Assembly: GCA_018818965.1 (NCBI GenBank) | Contig: JAHJQX010000014.1 | Span: forward strand, 6,178 to 70,177 | DNA length: 64,000 nt | Source: Patescibacteria group bacterium | Lineage (GTDB): Bacteria; Patescibacteriota; JABMPQ01 | Reading direction: 5' to 3' | Part shown: one piece after another, positions 5,343-58,653 of the stretch | Layout of the letters: every line of letters begins with the position of its first letter | Position numbering within the stretch: position 1 is the first letter of the stretch | The notes under the pieces: generated by a model | Seen by the model: only the letters and a program-made list of their open reading frames with translations | What the model was told of the DNA's origin: nothing | Databases searched by the model: none | Translations under genes and position numbers: made by a program

Positions 5343-6374
5343 ATGAATAATTCGTGGGGTAAGTGGAGTTTGTTGTTGGCTATCACACTAGTGGTTACCT
5401 TGGGAACGACTGGCTGTGTGAGTAAAATAAAAGAGGCAGCTAAAAGTGTGAGTGAATCAGTGAGCTCGAAGATGAGCACAATAGACTATCTTAACAAGAT
5501 TGTTGAAGCATCCAAAGCACCTAGTAGCCAGGTAAATGACTGGGCTTACGCGAGCTTTAATAGTCATCTGACTCTCATTGAAAGCACACCTAAAGAATGC
5601 AGCTATACCATGGAGCTTAATGAAATGGCTGACCAGAGTAATTTGCTAGGTGATAAAATATCAGTTGAGGACGAGTCGGTTAAAAACAAAGTCGAACCAA
5701 AATTCAAGGCTTATATAGATTCCTATGAGACTTTGCGGGAAGCGAATAACAAACTGGCCGATTATTGCAACCGGGAAACATACAAAGATGATGATGGCGC
5801 CCAGGTTTCTCCTTTGACCGAGGATGTTAAAAGCAAGATGTCTGATTTCATCACCGAAGATAATGATCTGAACAGCACCATTAAGGAAATCCAGCGGGAC
5901 ACTGATTTGGGGATTGATGAAAATAGTACTGATCCCTATGACGTTATCACTCTAGCCTCTGATGCTCTTACTAACGATATTGAAGATGCCCACGCCGCCT
6001 ATTCTAGTTGGGTTACAGCCAAGGCCGATGGTGGAAATCCAGACGCTTCGACGGTAAAGAGCGCTGAAGATAAGCTTAAGGCCGATATGAAGAAATATAA
6101 AGAAAAAGCTGACAGCGTTAAAGCTGAAGAAGCTGAATCAGTCGGATCGTATTATACATCATACATCAGTGAAGTAGATGACTTCGATGTCGAATATGAG
6201 AAGTTTGTTCGGGACGTGGAAAGCGGGGAGCTAACGACAGCCAAGGCCAACGAATTAATTGAAGAAGATCAGACGGGAATAACTGGCAGTGCGGTCTATG
6301 GTGCCTATAGTGATGTAATCGAAGCCCACAATAATATCGTGGATGCTGTTGAACGTTATAATCTGTATAGCTAA
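5343..6374 (+). CDS. Secreted lipoprotein, acidic, hypothetical
   Basis: Signal peptide with lipobox LGTTGC; Asp/Glu-rich mature region. Confidence 0.5.
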   Translation: MNNSWGKWSLLLAITLVVTLGTTGCVSKIKEAAKSVSESVSSKMSTIDYLNKIVEASKAPSSQVNDWAYASFNSHLTLIESTPKECSYTMELNEMADQSNLLGDKISVEDESVKNKVEPKFKAYIDSYETLREANNKLADYCNRETYKDDDGAQVSPLTEDVKSKMSDFITEDNDLNSTIKEIQRDTDLGIDENSTDPYDVITLASDALTNDIEDAHAAYSSWVTAKADGGNPDASTVKSAEDKLKADMKKYKEKADSVKAEEAESVGSYYTSYISEVDDFDVEYEKFVRDVESGELTTAKANELIEEDQTGITGSAVYGAYSDVIEAHNNIVDAVERYNLYS

Positions 6375-6484
6375 CTTTTTTTCAATCTTGGCGATCAACG
6401 CAGGGTGAACATTTATTCACCCTGTTTGTATATATGTACTATTTTGTGATATAGTTTAAGTGATAAATAAGTAAATCATAAATC

Positions 6485-15963: not shown

Positions 15964-16354
15964 TAGCAGCAATGCTAGGAGTATAAATTATACTATCAAG
16001 CTCTCTTGTGGTCGCGAGAGAGTTTTTTTGTCTTCTCTGGAAAGGGGCGTTAGCGCTCTTCTCCAGGTAAGATAAAGCCCTGAACATTATAACTAAGCGG
16101 GTTCTTCCCTCATTGCGCTTTTTGCGGAGAGTGCAGCGGGAGAAGAATCCCGAGGCGAGGAGTGCCTCGAAAAAAACTTCGTAATACTCCGGGGAAGCAC
16201 CGGGGCGCGCTGAGGCAGCGCGTAAAATTGCCTAGCAAAATCACGAGCCAGTAAAGGCCCAGCCCTGCACGATGCGGGGTGGTTGGGAGCGACACTGACT
16301 GGCTGAGAATCTAGAGCCCCACGTGAATACGGGGCAATCAAGAGGAGCGAGAGA

Positions 16355-16816
16355 ATGTTTTCCGCGCTGATCAACGAGTTGAACGGTATCTGGGGTGGTG
16401 GTCTCGAGGCAGTGCTGGGGTTCGTCGGGCTGCTGTTGGCGGCGCCGGCGCTGTGGTGGTGGCTGCTGCCGCGCTATACGGCGGTGTGCTGCCACGACGG
16501 GAACCGGTGGTTGTCGGACTGCCCGGGGACGTGGAGCAAGGCCCGGGGCGTTGCCGGCAACGACCTGGCCCTCTGGGTCAAGGCGTACGCCGCGCAGGTG
16601 ACGACTGGGAAGTTTCTCCAGCCGCACCAGGCCCGTATCCCCGAGAACCCCGTCCCACGGCGGCTGAAGGTGGTCCTGTTCGGCGAGCAGCGCGGCGTGT
16701 ACTATATCGTCGGGATCAAGATCCTCGACGAGAAAATACTCTCCGAGAAGTCCGACCGAAGCAACACCCCGGTCGTCAACTTTGAGGACGAGGACGAGTA
16801 CCTTCCGCTCCGCTAA
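16355..16816 (+). CDS. Hypothetical protein with N-terminal TM helix (GC-rich islet 1)
   Basis: GAGGAG SD 8 nt upstream; hydrophobic segment LGFVGLLLAAPALWWWLL; high-GC codon usage. Confidence 0.45.
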   Translation: MFSALINELNGIWGGGLEAVLGFVGLLLAAPALWWWLLPRYTAVCCHDGNRWLSDCPGTWSKARGVAGNDLALWVKAYAAQVTTGKFLQPHQARIPENPVPRRLKVVLFGEQRGVYYIVGIKILDEKILSEKSDRSNTPVVNFEDEDEYLPLR

Positions 16817-17261
16817 CGAACCGCCTGCTCCCCCCCAGAGACGTTCGCCAGGCTGACACCCTGGTCGCAGTCAACTGTCCCCGGCGCACGCAGCTGCGTT
16901 GGGTCTACCTCCCCGCTCACCTGTGAGGTGTGAGCGACTACGGGAGCCTACCAAATCCTCATTGTTCTTTTGACCCTTCACCCGGAAGCGCACTATCAGA
17001 GTACGCTTCCCCTTCCAGAGGATAGAAATAAGCTTCTATTCTCTGGAATAGTCATGAGTTACGATTCGTGACTACAAAAAATAGAAAAGTAATCCCTGGG
17101 CTGATCTAGGGATTATTGGTGTACCAACTTCACTCTCTGATTTGCTCTCTAGAAAGCGCAAACCAGCCGTGAACTTGGCACAAGCCAAGTCGAACATTTT
17201 AATCTGAGAATCGAAACCGACAAACAAAGCGCCTATTAAAAGACGCGAACAGGAGAAACTG

Positions 17262-19544
17262 GTGGCTAGCATTACGAGACAGGGTCCGCAGTACCACGGC
17301 CAGAGTGTGGAAGACCTCCGCACTTGGGCAGTCATCGAACGGCTGCCCTGGCTGGTGGAGGCCCTCGGCTTGACGGCCGGGGCGATCTGTGGATCCTTGG
17401 AGGAGGCGCTGCGGCGCCAGGTATACGGCTTGGGTAGCGCCGACGAGCTGCCCGCTCCCATTGACTGGGAGCGTAACGGTATCATCATCTCCCCGCCGGG
17501 GACGGGCAAGGGCATGGCCTGCTTCGTGGAGGCACTTCTGCACTACGAGCGGGTCTACGTGCTCGTGCCCTCGGTGATCCAGGCGCACAAGCTTGAGGAG
17601 AGCTTGGACGTCTTGTTTCATCGGGATCTGGGTGGCTGTGCAACGAGTCAGCGCAAGGCGCGGGGTCTGATCCGGGTCATCACGACCGGCATCTTCCACC
17701 AACTGGTGGCGGATGAGGACTCACAGCTGTGGGAGGACGGCACGGTTCTGATCGTGGACGAGGCGCAGCGGATTCTGGAGAACGATCCGGAGACGGAGCT
17801 GATGATCGGCACCTGCGCCTCGCAAGGGGTGCCGGTGATGATCGTCTCGGCGACGATTGCTCCGGGGACGTTGCCTGAAGTCTACGGTCACGGCGCGAGC
17901 GAGCCGGCTCAGGTCTACAGCCTGGTCAAGAACATGCACCCGGTGGAGATCGAGGTCACCACTGGCCGCGAGATCACCCAGGTGCTGTCCGAGACCGAGG
18001 AGCTGCTCGCTGACGGTAAGACGACGCTGGTCTTCTGCGCCTCGCGGCGCGAGGTGGCGAGCGTGGCTGATCTGCTGGCTCAACTGGGTGGAGCGACGGT
18101 GCGTGTTACTGGCGCTCATCAGGTGGAGGAGCAGATCGCCGAGATCGAGTCCGCTCAGGCGACCGGTCTGCCGGTGTTCGTGGTGGCCACGCCGGGCACC
18201 ATGGACAGCTCGGTGACGGTGCCGGGACTCTCCTGCGTCGTCATCCAGGACATGCGTTACAGTGTGGACTGGAATAAGTTTGGCGTGATCGAGCGTCGGC
18301 ACGAGACGCTGCCGGTCAACCACATTGTCCAGATGATCCGCCGGGTGGGTCGCATTGCCCGCACGGATGGTCAGCGGGACAAAGTGATCGTGGTTTCGAG
18401 CTGTCCCCGCCCGGAGCTGATGGTGGAAACGCCCCAGTTCCAGCCGATTTCCGGCTGCTCGCCGCACACTCAGATCGAGAACCTCCTGCTGCGCGCCGTG
18501 CAGTTTGACATCCCCTTCGCGGATGTCCACGACTACATGGTTAGCAACTTCGCAGAGGAGCGGATCGAGAAGACGGTGGCGGCGTTGCTGGAGCACGGCA
18601 TGATTGAGCGGGTGGACGACCCTTCCGATCCCGACGGCTTCGAGCTGACGGACAAGGGAGAGTTAGTCATCTCGCTGCCCTTCGAGTATCGCTGGTCGCG
18701 GTTGATCGTGGAGGCGCCGGAGGAGCTGCAGCTGTGGCTCACGCTGGCGGCCGCCTGCGGTCATGTCCGGGACCTGGAGATGCACGAGGAGCAGTCACTC
18801 GACGTGGCTGGTCACCAGCGCTCCGAAGTGCTGCGCAAGATCGCGCTCATGGTCGAGTACCTCGGCCTGGAGCACGACCGCGAGCAGCGCGACGAGGCCG
18901 ACGAGCGGGGACTGTCGTTCCGACGGATGGAGCAGGCAGAGACGCTGTTCGATCTGGCAATGGAGGCCTTGGAGCTGGACTGGGATGTAGACGAGCTGGC
19001 GGTGCCCGAGGGCGAGGAGATGGAGACGCTGCTCTTAGAGATCGTCACCGGCGGGCTGCGGACGGGTTTGTACAAGCTGTACTTCCCGCATCGTGGCGAC
19101 CGTGGTGGTTGGTCTGAGCCGCGGCCTACTCCTGACCTGGACGGCCAGTTTCGGCGTTTCTTCGTCGATGACAACGGCCTGGCTCTCTCGCGGTACGCCG
19201 AGGGCGGGGTTTGCGCCGTTGTCGCCTCGCCGACCTGGTTCACGTCCAAGAACGGCGGCCCCTGCGCCAACCTGGACGACGTGACCATCGTGCCGAGCGA
19301 TCTGCTGCCGCAGCTGGTAGCGGACTTGGCCAAGCGCGAAGGTTGGTTCCAGGTGACCTTCGAGGAGGGCGAGTTCCGGGGCCAGACCAGGCTCGAGGCC
19401 CGCGGCGCCGACGGGTGGACGATCTACCTGCCCAGCCGGATGGACAACGAGCCGGAGGTGGGTGTGGCCTACTGGTGCTCCCCCGATCGTCAGATCGGCC
19501 GGGGCATTCAGACGGTCTGGATCCACTTCCCGGTCAACGGCTAG
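17262..19544 (+). CDS. SF2 DExH-box helicase, NS3/DEAH-like, with degenerate Walker A (GTG start)
   Basis: Motifs read by eye: I PPGTGKG (no canonical GK[ST]), Ia VLVPSV, II DEAQ, III SAT, IV-like LVFCASRREVASVADLL, V VVATPGTMDSSVTVPG, VI QMIRRVGRIAR. AGGAG 6 nt before GTG. About 350-aa C-terminal extension of unknown fold. Confidence 0.7.
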   Translation: MASITRQGPQYHGQSVEDLRTWAVIERLPWLVEALGLTAGAICGSLEEALRRQVYGLGSADELPAPIDWERNGIIISPPGTGKGMACFVEALLHYERVYVLVPSVIQAHKLEESLDVLFHRDLGGCATSQRKARGLIRVITTGIFHQLVADEDSQLWEDGTVLIVDEAQRILENDPETELMIGTCASQGVPVMIVSATIAPGTLPEVYGHGASEPAQVYSLVKNMHPVEIEVTTGREITQVLSETEELLADGKTTLVFCASRREVASVADLLAQLGGATVRVTGAHQVEEQIAEIESAQATGLPVFVVATPGTMDSSVTVPGLSCVVIQDMRYSVDWNKFGVIERRHETLPVNHIVQMIRRVGRIARTDGQRDKVIVVSSCPRPELMVETPQFQPISGCSPHTQIENLLLRAVQFDIPFADVHDYMVSNFAEERIEKTVAALLEHGMIERVDDPSDPDGFELTDKGELVISLPFEYRWSRLIVEAPEELQLWLTLAAACGHVRDLEMHEEQSLDVAGHQRSEVLRKIALMVEYLGLEHDREQRDEADERGLSFRRMEQAETLFDLAMEALELDWDVDELAVPEGEEMETLLLEIVTGGLRTGLYKLYFPHRGDRGGWSEPRPTPDLDGQFRRFFVDDNGLALSRYAEGGVCAVVASPTWFTSKNGGPCANLDDVTIVPSDLLPQLVADLAKREGWFQVTFEEGEFRGQTRLEARGADGWTIYLPSRMDNEPEVGVAYWCSPDRQIGRGIQTVWIHFPVNG

Positions 19545-19572
19545 CTCTTTGTTTCTACTCTCGGGGAGAGAG

Positions 19573-19605
19573 TCAACGCTCTTTCCCCGTTTTTTCCCAG
19601 CTTGG
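19573..19605 (+). terminator. Intrinsic terminator after helicase (GGGGAGAGAG-tcaacg-CTCTTTCCCC + GTTTTTT); includes the right direct-repeat copy
   Basis: 10-bp stem with one G-U pair, followed by a T6 run. Confidence 0.6.
19574..19587. repeat. Direct repeat GGGAGAGAGTCAAC (right copy) flanking GC-rich islet 1
   Basis: Exact 14-mer match to 15950-15963. Confidence 0.7.
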
Positions 19606-31540: not shown

Positions 31541-31631
31541 TTAGGTTAGAAATTAAATGTTTAGTGTTGCTAGTATAACATGGAAAAAGAGTAAATTGAA
31601 TATTTGATCCAACCAATAACGATCTTGGTAA

Positions 31632-31664
31632 TAAAAAAATCCTCGGAGGAAAATCCTGAGGATC
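31632..31664 (-). terminator. Intrinsic terminator for the GC-rich permease gene (ATCCTCAGG-attttcct-CCGAGGAT + T7 on minus strand)
   Basis: Hairpin plus A7 on plus strand (T7 on minus) immediately 3' of the minus-strand stop at 31682. Confidence 0.6.
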
Positions 31665-31681
31665 AAAGGTACGAAGGTGAG

Positions 31682-33130
31682 CTACAGTATGACGAAGCGC
31701 ACCGTCAGCCAGGCGAGGTAGGCGATGCAGGTCCAGTAGAGCCGCCACGAAGTGCGAATCCAGGGACCAGGCCCCACTCCCAGCGCACGGCTGATGTAGA
31801 AGTTGGGCAGATTTGCTGGCACCGTCAGGAGCCCACCAAATAGTGCGCCTTGGACCACAGCTGTTGCTAGCAGAGTTGCTGGACCAAGACCCAGCGATTT
31901 GATCAGGCTCATCGGGATTATGATGTAGACCCGGGAAGCCAGGGCGTTGTCGGCGAAGTGGCTGGTTACGGCGCTGAGGAAGAACATCATTAGCGCCAGA
32001 ACGTAGAGCGCGATCGCCTTTGGCATCATCACGGAGAGGACTAGAACTTTCTGCCCGATCCAGATGATCAGCGGTTCAGCTACCACTCCGATCAGCTCGA
32101 GCGCAGCCAGGAGGACGGCCAGGATCAGCGGTTGCCACCTGGCAGTGAAGGCTTCCTCTAGGGCGTGTTGATCGTCCTGGTCAACGTCGGCGTACTTGGC
32201 ATGGGCTAGCAGGTAGCTGTAGACGGCGGCGGCCGAGTCAGCTGCCCACAGAAGCCCTATCCAAACCTGACTTGGCTTGAAGATCGCGGCCAAGATGTGA
32301 GCGATGACGATGCTCACCAGGATGGCGAGCGGCTTGATGCTCTCGCGGCTCAGGCGAGGCTGGTTGTTGCTGAACTCCACATTCTTGCCGACATGCTGAT
32401 AGAAGCGGAAGGTGGTGAGCGTCACGTGCAGCACGCACCCGACTCCCACCCAGGCGATCAGGTCAGTGATCCCCCAGCCGAAGCTTGCTTCCAACTTGCT
32501 CCAGACGATCAGGATGGGGGGAGCGGCGAAAAAAGTGAGCCCACCACCGGAGCCGATGGTAGCGGCCAAACCAACGGCCACGCGTTTCTTGTCTTCCTCG
32601 CTGTCGATCCTCGTTTTAACGTAGTCGCAAAGGAAGACCGCTGCTGCTGGTTCACCGGTGAGTGAGGAGAGGAGGGAACCGCCAGCGATCACCAGGCGCA
32701 TATCCCCGATCCGCTCCAGGAAACCCATGATGGGGATCATGTGTCGAACAGCGATGTTGGCCGCTGACATGATGCCCAATAGAGTGAAGCACTCTCCCCA
32801 GGGGATGTGGAGGCTCTGCCCCCACCAGAGGATGGTGCCCCCAGCGGCGATCCCAACAGCGATTCCGGCCAGTTCTCCTTCGTTGGTGATGCGGTGGAAG
32901 AAGCCGAAGATGGGAAACTTGTACCACCATCGTGGCCCCCCACCGGCCAGAAACATATCAGTCCGGGCCAGACCGTTCATGGCCAGAATGGCGGCCAGGA
33001 GAATTGCTCCTCCCGCTACCAACTGACTGCCGTTTGAGGCCACTGTGGTCAAGAACCCCCCAAAAGCCATGGTGGCCAACCATGACTGCACGAATGCAGC
33101 CCGATACAAATTCTTTCTGCTCATCTTCAC
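31682..33130 (-). CDS. Polytopic ion/anion permease, ArsB/NhaD-like or related transporter (GC-rich islet 2)
   Basis: 482 aa with ~12 TM helices and Gly-rich motifs; codon usage high-GC, unlike neighbours. Confidence 0.45.
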   Translation of the reverse strand: MKMSRKNLYRAAFVQSWLATMAFGGFLTTVASNGSQLVAGGAILLAAILAMNGLARTDMFLAGGGPRWWYKFPIFGFFHRITNEGELAGIAVGIAAGGTILWWGQSLHIPWGECFTLLGIMSAANIAVRHMIPIMGFLERIGDMRLVIAGGSLLSSLTGEPAAAVFLCDYVKTRIDSEEDKKRVAVGLAATIGSGGGLTFFAAPPILIVWSKLEASFGWGITDLIAWVGVGCVLHVTLTTFRFYQHVGKNVEFSNNQPRLSRESIKPLAILVSIVIAHILAAIFKPSQVWIGLLWAADSAAAVYSYLLAHAKYADVDQDDQHALEEAFTARWQPLILAVLLAALELIGVVAEPLIIWIGQKVLVLSVMMPKAIALYVLALMMFFLSAVTSHFADNALASRVYIIIPMSLIKSLGLGPATLLATAVVQGALFGGLLTVPANLPNFYISRALGVGPGPWIRTSWRLYWTCIAYLAWLTVRFVIL

Positions 33131-33294
33131 ATTCTCCTGGAATGATGCCCTGAGTATGTGGGCGTATGGGTGGCGGAAACACCTTCTATATTGTTCCGCC
33201 CGAATTTAAAAAGATCAGGCCATTACAGTAAATTTGATCAGCCTAACCTATTTTGGGATAATAGTCAATGAATTATTTCGAGATTTTTAAGGTC

Positions 33295-41187: not shown

Positions 41188-41253
41188 GGTATAAAAAAAC
41201 GCAGTGATGAGTTATTCCAAGCGACTAGGAAGTCGGTAGAGACTCTTAACTGC

Positions 41254-41262
41254 GTGGTTGTG
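41254..41262. repeat. Direct repeat GTGGTTGTG (left copy) flanking GC-rich islet 4
   Basis: Exact 9-mer also at 42634-42642, at the opposite islet boundary. Confidence 0.5.
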
Positions 41263-41377
41263 CAAAAGGTTGTGGCAGGACGGCCGCCAGTCTCCGTCCA
41301 TTAGGAGGGTCTGGGTGGCAGACGTGGTACAGGGCTGGAGCTGCCCGGCCACAAGCTGGTTGAGCTGGGTTAGGGAG

Positions 41378-42622
41378 CTAGGCCCGGTACTGGGCGAGAC
41401 AGACGGTGGAAGCGATCGGTCCGCCGATGTTTAGGGAGATGCCGTTTTCACAGTTCGACACCTTCAGCTCTACCGGCACCTGACCGAGGATCTGCTGATG
41501 AACCCAGCCAGCTAGGGCGAGGCCGGTTGCGCTGATGGGATGTCCCTTGGCCATCAGCCCGCCACTGGTGTTGGTGGGCAAGTCGCTGTCGATCCCCATC
41601 ATGTGATCCACGAAGTAGGGCAGACCTTGCCCCGGCTCAGCCAGCCCAGCGATCTCCGCCGTCAGTGGCAGCATGATCGAGAAGCAGTCGTGGGTCTCTA
41701 GGACGCCGATGCACTCGGGCGGGATTTTCGACATCCGAAGGGCTTCCACGAAAGCCTTCTTAGCGCCCACCGGCTGCAGCACGTTGTCGCCGCGGGAGGC
41801 GATGGACAGGCCGTCTACGGCGTGTCCCCAGCCAGCCAGCACGGTAACGTCGTCCTTGGTGAGACCCAGCATGCTCAGCCCCTCTTCGTCGCAGACAACG
41901 AAGCGGCTGTAGCCGTCGGAGATCTGGGAACATTCCTCCAGCTTCAATGGCAGGTCTTCCCCCTCACCCGTTTCCCCGTCCTTCTGGAACAAGCGGTAGC
42001 TGGACAGTACTGACTCGACGGTGATGGGGTTTCTCGGCGTACGCATGTGGGCCAGCGGGTTGTAGGCGGCGTTGGCGTAGAGGTAGGGCGGCAGGATGGC
42101 CAGCTGCTCCTCGCTGATCCCGTACCTCTCCATGTACATGTTCATGATCCGCGCGAAGAGGTGAGGGAAGCTGAAAGGCGGGAAGCGATCATCCGGGTGA
42201 GCAGCCGTTCCCAGCATCTGGCCGATCTTGATCGAGTCGGTCTTGGGAGGCTTGCCGTCCTTTCCCGGCTTCTTGATGTTCATCTTCTCGACGCCAATGG
42301 CCAGGGCGACGTGGGTGTCGCCGCAGCGCACCGTTTTGGCAGCATCCAGCAGGGCGAGCCCGCCGCTGTCGCAGGCGTTCCCCACCCCCACGATGGGCAG
42401 ACTGGTGTAGGCTGGATCCATGGCGACTGCTGCCGCCAGCAGGTGCTGGTCGTTGAGCTGGGGTGCCAGCATGCCAGCCACACTGATGTAGCCGATAGCC
42501 GCTCGCTGCTCATCGTTGAGCCCCTCCCGGCCAGCATCGACCAACATCTCAAGTAGCTCGTAACCCTTCAGGTCGCCGAACATACTCTGCCCATATAGGG
42601 CCAAATACATTTTTCCGTCCAA
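41378..42622 (-). CDS. Thiolase-family protein (SCP-x/archaeal-type acetyl-CoA acetyltransferase-like), TTG start (GC-rich islet 4)
   Basis: VGNACDSGG (active-site Cys motif) and C-terminal NTSGGLMAKGHPISATG; AGGAGG SD 5 nt before TTG; high-GC codon usage. Confidence 0.7.
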   Translation of the reverse strand: MDGKMYLALYGQSMFGDLKGYELLEMLVDAGREGLNDEQRAAIGYISVAGMLAPQLNDQHLLAAAVAMDPAYTSLPIVGVGNACDSGGLALLDAAKTVRCGDTHVALAIGVEKMNIKKPGKDGKPPKTDSIKIGQMLGTAAHPDDRFPPFSFPHLFARIMNMYMERYGISEEQLAILPPYLYANAAYNPLAHMRTPRNPITVESVLSSYRLFQKDGETGEGEDLPLKLEECSQISDGYSRFVVCDEEGLSMLGLTKDDVTVLAGWGHAVDGLSIASRGDNVLQPVGAKKAFVEALRMSKIPPECIGVLETHDCFSIMLPLTAEIAGLAEPGQGLPYFVDHMMGIDSDLPTNTSGGLMAKGHPISATGLALAGWVHQQILGQVPVELKVSNCENGISLNIGGPIASTVCLAQYRA

Positions 42623-42633
42623 GGTTTCCTCCT

Positions 42634-42642
42634 GTGGTTGTG
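42634..42642. repeat. Direct repeat GTGGTTGTG (right copy) flanking GC-rich islet 4
   Basis: Exact 9-mer match to 41254-41262. Confidence 0.5.
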
Positions 42643-42699
42643 ATGGTACAGCAAAAACAGTCGTGTCCCCATTCTATGTTATCCATACTGCCGGTCAAT

Positions 42700-53708: not shown

Positions 53709-54395
53709 CTAGACCTTTAATTTGAAAGGATTAAATTTTGTTTTGTGGTCGTAAAAATCCTCTTCTTCTTTGTGTTTAAGTAGAGCTATAATTTTATAAG
53801 TGAGTGGTGTAAACAATATTTCCATTCCCACCTTGAAGATGTAGTTGGAAATGATAATGGTCAATAGTAAGCTACTGGGCAACACTCCCCAGAAAGCGAT
53901 CAGGACAAAAATGACGGTATCAAGACTTTGACCAACGAGAGTAGAACTGATAGTTCGTACCCAGAGCCGCTTACCCTGCATTTTTACCTTTAGCTTAGCC
54001 AAAATGACGGCGTTAGAAAATTCACCTGCCAAATAGGCAATCAGGCTAGCAATGACTATTCTGACGCTAAGGCCGAGGATATTGTTGTAGGCTTCTTGGA
54101 AAGGCCAATCAGCGGCAGCTGGGAGTTTACCGACAATAATGAAAACGAGTGACATAACTAGGGCGGATATAAAACCCAGCCAGATTACTTTCCGCGAGCG
54201 ACGGAAACCATAGACCTCAGTTAAAATATCACCAAAAATGTAGGCAAGCGGAAAGAGCAAAGTACCAGCGTCAAAAGTGAAGAGCTTGAGATCAACAATT
54301 TTAGTGGAAGCGATATTGGAAATTAACAAAACCGCGACAAAAAAAGCGGTGATGGTATCGAGGTGGTGGTAAGATTTTTGGGTGTTTTCTCTCAT
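53709..54395 (-). CDS. Queuosine-precursor transporter, YhhQ/DUF165 (VUT) family
   Basis: 6-TM protein with conserved N-terminal pattern ...ISNIASTKIV...FPLAYIFGDILTEVYGF. Confidence 0.7.
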   Translation of the reverse strand: MRENTQKSYHHLDTITAFFVAVLLISNIASTKIVDLKLFTFDAGTLLFPLAYIFGDILTEVYGFRRSRKVIWLGFISALVMSLVFIIVGKLPAAADWPFQEAYNNILGLSVRIVIASLIAYLAGEFSNAVILAKLKVKMQGKRLWVRTISSTLVGQSLDTVIFVLIAFWGVLPSSLLLTIIISNYIFKVGMEILFTPLTYKIIALLKHKEEEDFYDHKTKFNPFKLKV

Positions 54396-54559
54396 AGCTA
54401 ATGTTGTTACGGGATAATGATATTTTATCTAACTTTTTAAAACAAGGGGATACAAGAAAAAATTATAAATCCGAGTGGGGCAGTGAGGACAGTTGAGGTT
54501 GACTTTGTGTCTATTTTTGGTACCTTAGGGAATATGTTTTCGACAACCTGCACTTTAAC

Positions 54560-54570
54560 CATTTAGCCAA
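54560..54570. repeat. Direct repeat CATTTAGCCAA (left copy) flanking GC-rich islet 5
   Basis: Exact 11-mer also at 55589-55599. Confidence 0.55.
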
Positions 54571-54655
54571 CCCGAGGGGGTTGAAAGGAGGAAAATTTAC
54601 CGAAGAGTGTTGTAAAGGGACAGATCGACAATGAGGAAGAGACAAGGAGACGAGG

Positions 54656-55453
54656 ATGAAGAGGGACGAGCGATTCAAGGCCCGGACAGATGCCGGAGTC
54701 ATCACGTTCTACGAAGACTTGAGGATGCTGGGAGCACTGCTCATCTATGGCGGACTCGACCGCGGGTTCGTGCTCAAGGTGGTTATGTTCCTGCTCACCG
54801 AGTTTCGCATCACCTTCGGCGAGCTGGCAGAGGTGTCAGAGGAGTTCCGGATCGGCGAGGACGAGGAACCGGAGTCTGCCAGGGAGACCGCCGAGGTCAG
54901 GACGGTGCACATGGGTGACACCGCGCCCTACCCGCCCGCCGGCGTCGAAGCTGCTGCTGAGGGTGATGCGGACGGTGGGCCGATCGCGAAGGTTCCCACC
55001 CAGCCGCTTCCCGACGAGCTGGACGGCGCCGGTGAGCAGGACACGCCCCCGGCCGGCATGAAACAGTGCGTGCACTGCCACGAGTACAAGATCCCGGCCG
55101 ACAAGTCGACCGTCGTCTGCTCGGGCTGCGAGGAGAAGCTGAAGGCGGAGTTCGACGGTGACGACGACGAGGACGAGGACAACGAGCCTGAAGTCGGAGA
55201 CGCCCCCCCGGAGGCCATCGTGACGTCCCCGCCCCCCGCCGAGGCCGCGACCGAGCTGGGCGCCGAGGATGATGACGACGACGAGGAGGGCTCTCCCGTC
55301 GCTACCCCGCCCGCCGAGCTCGAGCCCGCCGTGACCGACGAGGACGCCGGCCTGGAGCCCCCCGAGGAGATCGTGGTCGCGGACGCCGACGAGCCCGAGG
55401 GCACCTACGACCCGGTTGCCCAGAAGGGTCCCGGTGGCGGAACCGGCTGCTAG
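54656..55453 (+). CDS. Highly acidic protein with N-terminal ~70-aa domain and central CxxC...CxxC zinc-ribbon (GC-rich islet 5)
   Basis: AGGAG SD 6 nt upstream; CVHC...CSGC; long D/E/P/A low-complexity tracts; own terminator at 55515-55549. Confidence 0.5.
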   Translation: MKRDERFKARTDAGVITFYEDLRMLGALLIYGGLDRGFVLKVVMFLLTEFRITFGELAEVSEEFRIGEDEEPESARETAEVRTVHMGDTAPYPPAGVEAAAEGDADGGPIAKVPTQPLPDELDGAGEQDTPPAGMKQCVHCHEYKIPADKSTVVCSGCEEKLKAEFDGDDDEDEDNEPEVGDAPPEAIVTSPPPAEAATELGAEDDDDDEEGSPVATPPAELEPAVTDEDAGLEPPEEIVVADADEPEGTYDPVAQKGPGGGTGC

Positions 55454-55514
55454 CAGTCGCAACCTACCCCCCGAGCCATTTCTGGCTCACCGAACATCCC
55501 CAGGAGTGAACCAT

Positions 55515-55549
55515 CCCTGAATCCCACCGATTCTCAGGGATTTTTTTTT
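55515..55549 (+). terminator. Intrinsic terminator (CCCTGA-13nt-TCAGGG + T9)
   Basis: 6-bp stem followed by nine T residues, about 60 nt after the stop of 54656..55453. Confidence 0.65.
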
Positions 55550-55588
55550 GCTGCGCTTTCTTTCTCCATTACTAGCGAGCAGATGAAA

Positions 55589-55599
55589 CATTTAGCCAA
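55589..55599. repeat. Direct repeat CATTTAGCCAA (right copy) flanking GC-rich islet 5
   Basis: Exact 11-mer match to 54560-54570. Confidence 0.55.
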
Positions 55600-55692
55600 T
55601 AAAGAAATCCAGTTGCCACTAATAATTGGATCTTGAATGATGAACCAGAAACTGCTATTTTTAAGGTATTCACTAGGCTATAGGAGATAACG

Positions 55693-55911
55693 ATGACTGG
55701 TCCGAACGGACCTGGGCCTCTACCCTCCAACTCTGGTAGGGAGCCGTCTGAGGGCAGAGAGACGATTGTGGAGTACACTCCTCTGACCCCAACCGGTCTC
55801 CCCCCCAGATGTGAAGGGGTGGACTGCGAGGCGTTCAGCATTCCCTGCCGTACCTCCCCTCCTCGAGAACCGACTTCTCCTCCCACGACCAAAAAAATCG
55901 ACCCAAAGTAG
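55693..55911 (+). CDS. Pro-rich small protein, 72 aa (GC-rich, just outside right repeat of islet 5)
   Basis: TAGGAGA SD 5 nt before ATG; competing antisense ORF 55572..55961 lacks an SD; coding status uncertain. Confidence 0.3.
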   Translation: MTGPNGPGPLPSNSGREPSEGRETIVEYTPLTPTGLPPRCEGVDCEAFSIPCRTSPPREPTSPPTTKKIDPK

Positions 55912-55989
55912 GTCGAAAATGAGAATCCCTGCCCCTTTTTGCCCTTCGCCATGGCCAGCAACTACTGCTCGGCCACTTTTTTACCATCT

Positions 55990-57261
55990 TTACCAGCGAT
56001 AATTTCTAAGCCCCCAATTAAGCAGTGATTCGACTTCAAATTTAGTGTCGGCATAAGAGGGATTACCCATTGTTACCGCGATTACCTCGTTGCCGTAGCG
56101 ATCTTTGGCTTTGGTCATTAAATTATAGTGGATTCCACCCCAGGAAGGTGGTAGATAACCAGTTTTCCCGCCGGTAACGGTGAGTTGGCTATTAACCAAA
56201 CCATTAGTATTACGAAAACTGAGAAATTTACTGCTGTTAGTAGTCCAGAAAGAGTAACTTTTACTAGTGGAGGCTTGTAGCACCTCCATTTTGTGCAGAG
56301 CGTATTGACTGAGTTTGGCATAATCAGTTGCGGAAGCACGATTGCGGTGATCAAGGCCAGTCGGTTCAACAAACGAAGCGTTACTCATTCCTAATTCGAC
56401 TGCTTTTTGGTTCATGCGGTTGACGAAATCAGTGTCGGAAAGACCAGTGGAATGAGCGAGAGCTTTGGTGGCGTTGTTTTTCGAGCCAACTAGGGAGGAA
56501 TAAAATAAGTCACGTACTTTTGTTCTATCTCCTGGTACGACGTTAAGGTGGCAACCGTCAGCGGAGTCAGCTGCACTGATTGTTACTTCGCGATTAAAAT
56601 CAGGATTGGTTTCCAGAAAGATCACGGCGGTCATTAATTTAGTCAGGCTAGCTAGAGGGAGTTGCTCGTTGGAATTTTTCTCGAACAGCACTTGCCCGCT
56701 TTCATCGTCAATCACAATCGCCGCGCGTGCGTCGGTGGCGATGCCCCAGCTATCAGTAGCTTTGGTTGGACCCGGAGCTTGCTTTTCCTCTAAAACCGCT
56801 AGATAAGAATGGGGAAAGTGAATAGCGGCACGCGCGTACTTATTAGTCCCGTCTAAACTAGTCGGGATTGGTTTCCAACCACCAGTGGTGTGATCATAAA
56901 AATTAATCTGCTTGTGATTGAGCGAGCTCGATTCGTATTTGAGAGCAACCCAGATCGGTTTTTCCAGCACCCGCGGCTGCGACATCTCGATGTTGTACGA
57001 ATAGATCTCACTGATTATGTTTTTATCAGTTGGCAGAGTAGGGTAGTCAGTCAGATCTTCAAGCTTGATAGTCGAAGCTTCGGAAAAAACATTAGGGCCG
57101 ATACCGATCCGGAAGTTTTGGTCAGTTAGTTCGATCGTGTAACCTCTCACAATGGTAGCAGCATCGAGATGGGTGCGTTCAACTTGGGCAAAAACTACGC
57201 CAGGTAGAAAAAGAGATATCCCGGCGGCGGTTAGCAATATTTTCTTCAGTGTTTTCATCAT
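55990..57261 (-). CDS. D-alanyl-D-alanine carboxypeptidase (peptidase S11, PBP5/6-like) with extra N-terminal domain
   Basis: Signal peptide; SxxK (ASLTK), SxN (SKN) and KTG (GGKTGY) motifs. Confidence 0.75.
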   Translation of the reverse strand: MMKTLKKILLTAAGISLFLPGVVFAQVERTHLDAATIVRGYTIELTDQNFRIGIGPNVFSEASTIKLEDLTDYPTLPTDKNIISEIYSYNIEMSQPRVLEKPIWVALKYESSSLNHKQINFYDHTTGGWKPIPTSLDGTNKYARAAIHFPHSYLAVLEEKQAPGPTKATDSWGIATDARAAIVIDDESGQVLFEKNSNEQLPLASLTKLMTAVIFLETNPDFNREVTISAADSADGCHLNVVPGDRTKVRDLFYSSLVGSKNNATKALAHSTGLSDTDFVNRMNQKAVELGMSNASFVEPTGLDHRNRASATDYAKLSQYALHKMEVLQASTSKSYSFWTTNSSKFLSFRNTNGLVNSQLTVTGGKTGYLPPSWGGIHYNLMTKAKDRYGNEVIAVTMGNPSYADTKFEVESLLNWGLRNYRW

Positions 57262-57956: not shown

Positions 57957-57994
57957 AATAAAGCCATCTTAGCATAAAATCAGGCTTCTAATAA

Positions 57995-58025
57995 TAAAAA
58001 AAGATCGTCTGGGATGCAACGATCT
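57995..58025 (-). terminator. Intrinsic terminator for the EamA-like gene (AGATCGT-10nt-ACGATCT, T7 on minus strand)
   Basis: Perfect 7-bp stem; A7 on plus strand precedes it (T7 following on minus). Confidence 0.6.
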
Positions 58026-58033
58026 TGAAGTTA

Positions 58034-58447
58034 CTACTTGAGGAGAAAAACGGCGATGGCCATGAGGATAAATCCAATGACCTTTTTGTCCGTGAAGAGC
58101 TCTCCAAGAAGGAGCCAGGAAAAAACGGCAGTGAGGGCGAAGGTTGCGCCGAATATCACGGGAGTAATCCGGGATATGTCCATTTTTCCGCCCACCAGGA
58201 CGCCGTAAACGATGATACCCATCCCGTTGATGATTCCCGCTCCCAATCCGATCAGCAATGATCTTATGGGTGGAAGACTGGTCATCCCCCCCGTTGTCAC
58301 TCCCCATAAAACAGTTGTGGGCAGAGTGCCGGTGGCCAGCATGATTGATATCCAGGCTGGCGGTAATTTCGAATACCGCGAGATGATTGGGTGGAATGTG
58401 TAGAAAAGAGCTCCCAGCAAACAATAGCAAAGTCCAGCTGTGTCCAT
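58034..58447 (-). CDS. 4-TM EamA/DMT-like small transporter (GC-rich islet 6); start likely ATG at 58447, not the TTG at 58465
   Basis: Four TM helices, Gly-rich; high-GC codon usage; own terminator. Confidence 0.45.
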   Translation of the reverse strand: MDTAGLCYCLLGALFYTFHPIISRYSKLPPAWISIMLATGTLPTTVLWGVTTGGMTSLPPIRSLLIGLGAGIINGMGIIVYGVLVGGKMDISRITPVIFGATFALTAVFSWLLLGELFTDKKVIGFILMAIAVFLLK

Positions 58448-58653
58448 TGTTTTCCCTTTCGCCAAGTGTTGGTTCCCGAAGTGGAAATCTAACCAGCCTA
58501 ACTCTTTTTGGTAAGTAAGTCCAGCAAAAATATTTACAGCTAGACAACTCCATTGATTTCAAGGGGATGGTTTTCTATAATATTAAAGTAATATACAAAA
58601 ATGTAGCTAATTAATTTTCAAGTTAAATTATTTACATATTAACGATAAAATTT

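Follow-up and report, generated by a model that had tools for sequence, protein, structure and literature searches.

An orphan family of acidic proteins encoded in the variable dacA-Vut_1 spacer of a narrow Patescibacteria lineage

Introduction

DNA mimics and polyanionic decoys include phage Ocr, ArdA and the acidic C-terminal tails of SSB or T7 gp2.5. Classical DNA mimics have compact folds with ordered arrays of carboxylates, and the ZAS anti-sigma factors carry the zinc motif HxxxCxxC. A further point of comparison for disordered acidic proteins is provided by lineage-specific orphan open reading frames (ORFans) in flexible genome regions. Here, we analyse the gene of a strongly acidic protein of 265 amino acids (aa), located at 54656-55453 on the plus strand of a 64-kb stretch of contig JAHJQX010000014.1 (hereafter, the window). 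The window belongs to a metagenome-assembled genome of Patescibacteria, and the protein is NCBI MBU1177879.1 (locus tag KJ903_01540), both assignments resting on identity to the NCBI record. It has until now been an uncharacterised hypothetical protein. Its gene lies between a divergent gene for a Vut_1/YhhQ-family transporter (53709-54395, minus strand; PF02592, E = 2.8e-52) and the convergent dacA, which encodes a D-Ala-D-Ala carboxypeptidase (Peptidase_S11, 55990-57261, minus strand; E = 1.1e-46). A preliminary description had taken the gene for an insertion that duplicated an 11-bp target. We find that it belongs to a five-member orphan protein family limited to one narrow Patescibacteria lineage, and that it is probably an old, fast-evolving resident of the dacA-Vut_1 spacer and not a recent insertion.

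An acidic-protein gene in a self-contained transcription unit

Relatives of the locus were collected by scanning one genome per species for Vut_1 and by retrieving contigs that encode close DacA homologues. Six related lineages were obtained, in which DacA is 77-85% identical to that of the window; their contigs are referred to below by locus labels (L002, L003 and so on). A scan of metagenome contigs with DacA returned distant relatives only, at most 50% identical. An assembly contig in ENA matches the window at 100% identity across 19 kb.

The stretch that holds the acidic gene has a GC content of 62-72%, compared with about 41-43% for the genome otherwise, and the GC content at the first, second and third codon positions of the coding sequence (CDS) is 0.74, 0.45 and 0.85, respectively. 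The third-position value (GC3) of host genes is 0.38-0.46. Chance falls far short of explaining either the GC island or the coding signal. Synonymous codon choice within the CDS is coherent (GAC 0.86, GAG 0.90, AAG 0.90, with CTG/CTC) and opposite to that of host genes (GAT 0.69, GAA 0.66, AAA 0.65). A Shine-Dalgarno (SD) sequence, a promoter-like site and a terminator are all suitably positioned around the CDS, and the reading frame is kept in other organisms, with an in-frame motif and N-terminal domain in four other sequences. The acidic open reading frame (ORF), supported by codon usage and by the NCBI entry, is therefore a real gene, because its GC3 signal is frame-specific, its codons are coherent, its expression signals are correctly placed and, chiefly, its frame is conserved elsewhere.

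The promoter-like site at 54499-54526 (plus strand) consists of TTGACT (54499-54504), a 16-nt spacer and TACCTT (54521-54526). It is the sole match of its kind in the window and is conserved as TTGACT-16-TATTTT in L104 and TTGACT-16-TAGCCT in L098. The 5' leader of about 130 nt (54527-54655, plus strand) contains an 11-mer discussed below, a leader box and the SD sequence GGAG (54646-54649, plus strand), located 6 nt ahead of the ATG. This leader can be aligned with that of L104 and, in part, with those of L098 and L003, including the succession ACATTTAACCA..TTAGCC..CCCGAGGGGGTTGAAAGGAGG, although the global RNA fold of the window's leader is not significant (z = -0.08). The window and L104 share a conserved leader box, CCCGAGGGGGTTGAAAGGAGG (54571-54591 in the window, plus strand). 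This box holds a perfect SD-like GGAGG about 65-85 nt before the true start, for which there is no suitably spaced start codon, and can form a small hairpin, CAACCC-GAGG-GGGUUG, whose pairing is retained in L104 through an A-to-G change. The box is possibly a regulatory element.

Downstream of the CDS, the 3' untranslated region (3'UTR) contains a conserved hairpin, GAGCCAnnnnTGGCTC (GAGCCA..TGGCTC; 55473-55488, plus strand), followed by an intrinsic terminator. The preliminary description had assigned the gene a terminator of its own, and folding places it at 55513-55549 (plus strand), as a CCCTGA..TCAGGG stem-loop (55513-55541) followed by nine T to 55549, which occurs once in the window. 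L003, L102, L104 and L098 have the 3'UTR hairpin and the CCCTGA..TCAGGG terminator as well, and the terminator stem remains as a relic in L002. Over 98 nt, the 3'UTR is 75.5% identical to that of L003 (blastn, E = 7.6e-9). A search of 54380-56020 on both strands against Rfam gave no match at E <= 1. The interval from 54.5 to 55.55 kb is a self-contained, vertically resident unit made of promoter, leader, CDS, 3'UTR hairpin and intrinsic terminator.

Family members and turnover of the dacA-Vut_1 spacer

Homologous units were found in four relatives. L104 carries a 253-aa acidic gene, convergent with dacA, at a position equivalent to that of the window. In L003, L094, L095 and L096, representing several independent sample assemblies, a 192-aa acidic gene occupies the dacA-Vut_1 spacer and is followed by a RidA gene. 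L102 retains a C-terminal fragment (...KPDSEE) downstream of dacA at the contig end, next to the same 3'UTR. In L098, a 132-aa member (P0086) has the same promoter and terminator, but it adjoins pilB instead of lying in the dacA-Vut_1 spacer. Because four relatives hold the homologous unit, three of them in the same spacer, the gene is probably a long-standing resident and not an inserted element.

Members have in common an N-terminal domain of about 70 aa (aa 1-70 in the window's protein, 54656-54865, plus strand), which defines the family, and the motif ES(A/Q)R(E/P)TAE(V/F). The motif reads ESARETAEV in the window (aa 73-81, 54872-54898, plus strand), ESARPTAE in L003 and ESQRETAEV in L098, and its equivalent in L104 is QSQVETAE. 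Across the window and about 100 loci, only L003/L094/L095, L098 and L001, the contig of the window itself, carried the motif; the search pattern had three looser matches besides, one of them in an unrelated ORF of L077 and the others in short ORFs of L057 and L061. Short proline motifs (YPPA, SPVAGP, PI(A/K)(K/R)VPT and DPVA) also occur in the family, and the tail is acidic, rich in P, A, D and E, and highly variable in length.

A profile built from three N-terminal domains retrieved one further member, P0086 of L098. In leave-one-out tests, with profiles made from the other three N-terminal domains, the window ORF was the top non-training match among 12,288 six-frame ORFs (E = 1.8e-4), and L104 was recovered at E = 2.2e-5. 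A hidden Markov model scan of the six-frame ORFs of the window and the roughly 100 loci detected no extra paralogues. Amino-acid identity between acidic proteins is only 23-25%, against 77-85% for DacA; the regulatory flanks of the gene stay alignable despite this fast divergence of the coding part.

The presence of the gene varies among the relatives. L002 has a dacA-Vut_1 spacer of 198 bp without it, in which a strong promoter (TTGACG-17-TACAAT) stands back to back with what remains of the terminator (..CACTGATTCAGGGTTTTTTATT; L002:4345-4500, on the minus strand of that locus, which corresponds to the orientation of the window). L002 appears to have lost the acidic gene by deletion, since promoter and terminator relic persist with the gene gone from between them, a pattern unlike that of a spacer that had never held it. 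In L101, the spacer carries an unrelated 166-aa membrane protein, and the acidic gene is absent from the part of the contig examined. Apparently lost in L002, absent from the examined part of L101 and located elsewhere in L098, the gene appears dispensable, and the dacA-Vut_1 spacer is a hot spot of gain and loss within the lineage.

Other genes at these sites differ as well. Downstream of dacA, L101:6386-7199 and L098:3789-4316 encode unrelated membrane proteins of 166 and 175 aa, respectively, with no Pfam match and a GC3 of 0.53-0.67. The Vut_1 gene of L101 is internally deleted, leaving 71 aa in which its N- and C-terminal ends are joined in frame. OPT-family transporters lie beside the hot spot in L094 (6389-8428) and L101 (7409-9634); they are only 29% identical to each other and both are GC3-enriched (0.64-0.67), which suggests that they were acquired independently from a GC-richer pool.

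Protein architecture and homology searches

The 265-aa protein contains 68 Asp and Glu residues, with an isoelectric point (pI) of 4.05 and a net charge of -49. It has neither a signal peptide nor a membrane segment. Structural models were computed with AlphaFold2 (AF2) from an alignment of two sequences only, and gave a mean predicted local distance difference test score (pLDDT) of 50.7 over the entire protein and of 60.2 over its N-terminal 90 aa. The N-terminal domain is predicted as a beta-hairpin (aa 5-19) and three helices (aa 22-31, 36-49 and 54-68), with a pLDDT of 67-76 for aa 21-60. About 60% of the protein is predicted to be disordered, including the acidic D/E/P/A tail (aa 169-265, 55160-55450, plus strand), which carries a net charge of -33; a weak (GAC)n-like tract is found at 55160-55185, in the part of the CDS that encodes this tail.

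Four cysteines (C138, C141, C155 and C158) form the pattern CVHC-x13-CSGC, and a fifth, C265, is the C-terminal residue. The segment formed by this zinc ribbon and the following helix (aa 135-168, 55058-55159, plus strand) is modelled as a hairpin plus helix (aa 135-169) with a pLDDT of 76-81. The compact N-terminal domain, the CVHC..CSGC ribbon and the D/E/P/A tracts recognised in the preliminary description were thus all recovered. The ribbon is private to the window's member, with no counterpart in the three other full-length members (L104, L003 and L098). The window copy has gained this CxxC-x13-CxxC zinc ribbon inside its tail; because L104, L003 and L098 are devoid of it, the ribbon does not define the family and cannot be central to its function.

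Sequence searches bore out the earlier impression that the protein has no obvious family. A phmmer search of 1.84e9 representative proteins and a word-indexed search of 5.8e9 clusters each returned the acidic protein itself only, and nothing above threshold was obtained against Pfam, NCBIfam, PHROGs or PADLOC. The zinc-ribbon segment gave matches below the curated cutoffs to DmmA-like_C (PF22289; E = 1e-4, 22.6 bits against a cutoff of 27.4) and to DZR_2 (PF18912; E = 0.037). PDB sequences yielded no significant match with the family profile or the zinc-ribbon segment as queries. Foldseek searches of PDB and BFVD with the AF2 models of the full protein and of its N-terminal 90 aa gave no match at E < 0.1. 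Phage and plasmid collections (blastn, tblastn) showed no similarity, and viral contigs scanned with the acidic family, and also with the helicase of the window's islet 1 (see below), gave no match.

The 11-mer pair

As previously described, the 64 kb contain exactly two copies of the 11-mer CATTTAGCCAA, one at 54560-54570 and the other at 55589-55599. The left copy (plus strand) lies within the conserved leader, downstream of the conserved promoter; the orthologous position in L104 reads CATTTAACCAA / CAATTAGCC. Because it is inside the conserved leader, the left copy is part of the gene unit and does not mark a junction. The right copy (plus strand) is located 40 nt past the conserved terminator, inside a segment present only in the window, and is absent from the corresponding place in L104, L102, L003 and L002. 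The pair extends to 17 matches out of 21, and as a bracket around the gene it exceeds chance only marginally. The repeat is best read as a coincidence between the conserved leader and an unrelated, window-specific segment, and not as a target-site duplication.

The GC3-rich codon dialect

Three other GC-rich islets of the window (16000-19600, 31600-33200 and 41200-42650; 59-65% GC, GC3 0.74-0.88) use the codon dialect of the acidic gene. They encode a 153-aa protein with a hydrophobic N-terminal stretch (16355-16816, GC3 0.88), a 760-aa DEAD/DEAH helicase with weak PADLOC matches to DinG/BrxH-type helicases (17262-19544, GC3 0.84), a Na+/H+ antiporter-like protein (31682-33130, GC3 0.74) and a thiolase-like protein (41378-42622, GC3 0.81). 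The promoter, leader-box and terminator motifs of the acidic gene were not found at these islets. Among its orthologues, GC3 is 0.735 in L104, 0.86 in the L102 fragment, 0.69 in L003 and 0.56 in L098, while the DacA genes of their hosts have values of 0.42-0.50. Accessory genes at variable sites in the relatives are GC3-enriched too, as seen for the OPT transporters (0.64-0.67) and the 166-aa protein of L101 (0.665).

The window-specific segment and its 72-aa ORF

Between the terminator of the acidic gene and the 3' end of dacA lies a window-specific segment of about 380-400 bp (55550-55950). The equivalent interval is about 60-100 bp in L104, L102 and L002, and in L003 it is occupied by the RidA gene. 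Nucleotide and six-frame comparisons (blastn, tblastx) revealed no similarity of 55550-55950 to the fetched loci or to the rest of the window. The gene that takes its place in L003 (2219-2596; also L094:4245-4622) belongs to the RidA/YjgF (Ribonuc_L-PSP) family. A decayed RidA gene was considered for 55450-56000 and rejected (tblastn, E = 2.1).

The segment contains a Pro-rich ORF of 72 aa (55693-55911, plus strand), with an AGGAG SD sequence (55682-55686) 6 nt before its ATG and a sigma-70-like promoter site upstream (55613-55641, plus strand; 9/12 match). The ORF and the good SD noted in the preliminary description are present, but the ORF is probably not a gene, for it has no codon-position signal, gene call or relatives. 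Its GC content at the three codon positions is 0.55, 0.64 and 0.59, its exact sequence is absent from a collection of 15 billion proteins, it received no gene call in the ENA contig, and no homologue was detected in the relatives, PHROGs, Pfam or PADLOC. Its final codons and stop fall in the hairpin of the dacA intrinsic terminator (55889-55916, minus strand; TCGACCTACTTTGGGTCGA plus seven T, with the hairpin at minus-strand 55916-55898). When compared with shuffled sequences, the minus strand of 55600-55990, located downstream of the dacA terminator, folds with z = -2.95, and the plus strand of the downstream segment with z = -1.1. In L098, a 73-aa gene (MPSFKIWSEGYSATG...; 6184-6405, minus strand) that possesses an SD and a terminator of its own stands directly downstream of the family member and is encoded on the strand of that member. 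Its product matched nothing in Pfam and bears no relation to the 72-aa ORF of the window.

Neighbouring features

No integrase, transposase or other mobility gene was detected in the 52.5-58 kb neighbourhood. No tRNA gene lies near the acidic gene, the sole tRNA of the window being at 1-71, and att-like repeats were not found in its vicinity. Beyond dacA, a listed ORF of 197 aa, rich in His and Arg (57969-58562, minus strand; annotated with 194 aa in the ENA contig), appears spurious. It overlaps a 143-aa ORF (58034-58465, minus strand) that reads as a multi-pass membrane protein and is the likelier gene of the two, because its counterpart in L094 gives a weak EamA match.

Alternative explanations

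Several features of the locus could be accommodated by a chance ORF within GC-rich non-coding or chimeric DNA: GC-rich DNA is poor in stop codons, several long ORFs overlap on both strands, no database homologues were found outside the lineage, and the sequence comes from a metagenome assembly. Such an ORF is nonetheless extremely improbable in view of the strong frame-specific GC3 periodicity, the in-frame conservation of motif and N-terminal domain in other species and the correct positions of SD, promoter and terminator; moreover, the ENA contig is identical over 19 kb, and at least four samples yielded an assembly of the L003 version. Nearly as improbable is the recent insertion of a single-gene islet whose integration duplicated CATTTAGCCAA. 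The exact 11-mers with their 17/21 extension flank a GC-rich gene of foreign-like composition, and a bracket of at least 11 nt arises in only 1.8% of flank shuffles (P = 0.018). However, a bracket of that size is also seen in 7% of natural windows with this geometry along the same 64 kb, homologous gene units exist in four relatives, the left copy sits in a conserved leader behind a conserved promoter, the right copy is in DNA that all relatives lack, and the neighbourhood has neither integrase nor transposase. The preliminary description had also proposed beforehand that both 11-mers in an empty site would speak against duplication. The empty spacer of L002 contains not a single copy in the orientation of the window, and does contain the promoter and the terminator relic; the comparison of 11-mers is moot because the other evidence already contradicts insertion. 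As to the downstream segment, the AGGAG 6 nt ahead of an ATG, the sigma-70-like site, the minus-strand fold and the (unrelated) small gene after the L098 member would fit a genuine small protein gene at 55693-55911 or a small structured RNA at 55.69-55.95 kb. This is unlikely given the lack of a codon-position signal, of a gene call, of the exact protein in the collection and of homologues in the sets searched, the overlap of the ORF end with the dacA terminator hairpin, the weak plus-strand fold and the absence of Rfam matches on either strand. For the ORF taken by itself, being a real micro-gene is doubtful, and it is most likely non-coding filler.

The interpretation of the gene as an old resident encoding a cytoplasmic acidic protein has points against it. 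The GC3-rich dialect (0.85 against 0.38-0.46 in the host), which it has in common with the other islets, is a classic mark of foreign DNA, and it is unexpected here because a vertically descended, fast-diverging syntenic gene should drift to host composition. The GC3 spread among orthologues, 0.56-0.86, fits recurrent allele replacement better than one old acquisition. The leave-one-out profiles fall short of significance for L003 (E > 10) and L098 (0.18), whose membership rests on motif, synteny and flanks. As to function, the AF2 models are of low confidence (mean pLDDT 50.7 and 60.2), and the fold searches came back empty. The composition could be explained if the site and its flanks are old and the coding segment was recently recombined in from a GC-richer flexible gene pool, its source being another lineage with the same family, within a broader inflow of GC-rich accessory genes into this genome. 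In keeping with such a replacement, the dialect matches that of the other islets and is opposite to that of host genes, the orthologues range over GC3 values of 0.56, 0.69, 0.735, 0.85 and 0.86 while their hosts all stay at 0.42-0.50, accessory genes at variable sites of the relatives are likewise enriched, the coding DNA is unalignable whereas the UTRs are about 75% identical, and horizontal gene transfer into and between Patescibacteria is reported to be frequent (PMC12455944). Yet neither a donor nor a GC-rich homologue was found among 1.84e9 representative proteins, a donor would have to share the AT-rich leader and terminator and would thus itself be an AT-rich relative, mobility genes, tRNAs and att-like repeats are missing nearby, and the regulatory motifs are not common to the other islets. 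Altogether, we consider recent replacement rather unlikely. The dialect may alternatively stem from a recombination hot spot with GC-biased gene conversion, or from the slippage of triplets (GAC, GAG, CCC and GCC). Less likely still is a hypervariable cassette, in which a conserved promoter, leader and terminator surround a repeatedly replaced or rapidly remodelled GC3-rich coding segment, kept in a codon dialect foreign to the AT-rich Patescibacteria. On that reading, these episymbiont-type bacteria would have access to a separate pool of high-GC genes, perhaps that of their host organisms, and the acidic disordered protein would be a conflict or host-interaction factor, for instance a nucleic-acid mimic or decoy, that evolves under diversifying selection. 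The probable reading remains that of an old resident of the spacer that evolves fast.

Possible function and significance

Given that it has no signal peptide or membrane segment, a charge of -49 and motif-studded disorder, the acidic protein would most likely act in the cytoplasm. The apparent dispensability of the gene, its conserved expression signals and the very fast divergence of its coding part were considered as well. Its N-terminal domain may serve to dock or oligomerise the protein, and the acidic tail might bind basic proteins, probably ones that bind nucleic acids, and act as their decoy or chaperone. By analogy, a role as a cytoplasmic polyanionic binder or decoy can be put forward tentatively, although we hold it to be improbable.

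The analysis removes a false call of insertion with target duplication, defines a small new protein family together with its regulatory unit and boundaries, and identifies the dacA-Vut_1 spacer as a gain and loss hot spot in this lineage. The finding is otherwise ordinary to mildly interesting, and the persistence of the GC3 dialect might be the only aspect likely to surprise a specialist. Should it reflect a separate donor pool or a local GC-biased process, for example biased gene conversion at recombination hot spots, it would be relevant to the ways in which ultra-small symbiotic bacteria gain and retain accessory genes.

Comparison with known systems

The acidic protein resembles DNA mimics in its extreme negative charge (pI 4.05, -49), small size and inferred cytoplasmic location. 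It differs from them in that about 60% of it is predicted to be disordered, in showing no sequence or fold similarity to them, and in the genomic setting, which has no phage, plasmid or restriction-modification context. Membership of an anti-phage defence system or of a phage is likewise not indicated by PADLOC or PHROGs matches, or by similarity to phage, plasmid or viral contigs.

The role of DNA mimic or anti-sigma-like factor that the preliminary description had suggested finds no support in sequence or fold matches, nor is it contradicted by them. With ZAS anti-sigma factors, the protein has in common that it is small, presumably cytoplasmic and equipped with cysteine pairs, and Foldseek returned a weak, non-significant match to the anti-sigma factor RslA (E = 7.6, template modelling score 0.35-0.46). 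The likeness ends there: its cysteines form a mid-tail pair of zinc-ribbon knuckles, CxxC-x13-CxxC (aa 138-158), and not HxxxCxxC, its neighbours are Vut_1 and Peptidase_S11 genes with no sigma factor gene adjacent, and Pfam gives no anti-sigma match. The zinc-ribbon domains DmmA-like_C and DZR_2 offer a local parallel, since in the AF2 model a beta-hairpin bears the two CxxC knuckles and a helix comes after it; the scores, however, lie under the curated cutoffs, and the remaining architecture is unrelated.

Lineage-specific ORFans share several traits with the acidic gene, namely a narrow clade, fast evolution of sequence and length, polymorphism for presence and absence, a promoter and terminator of its own, and a low-complexity composition in D, E, P and A. 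Two properties set it apart from them. The flanks of the gene are much better conserved than its CDS, and a GC3-rich dialect is found across several AT-rich hosts, which is atypical for orphans that arise de novo or drift.

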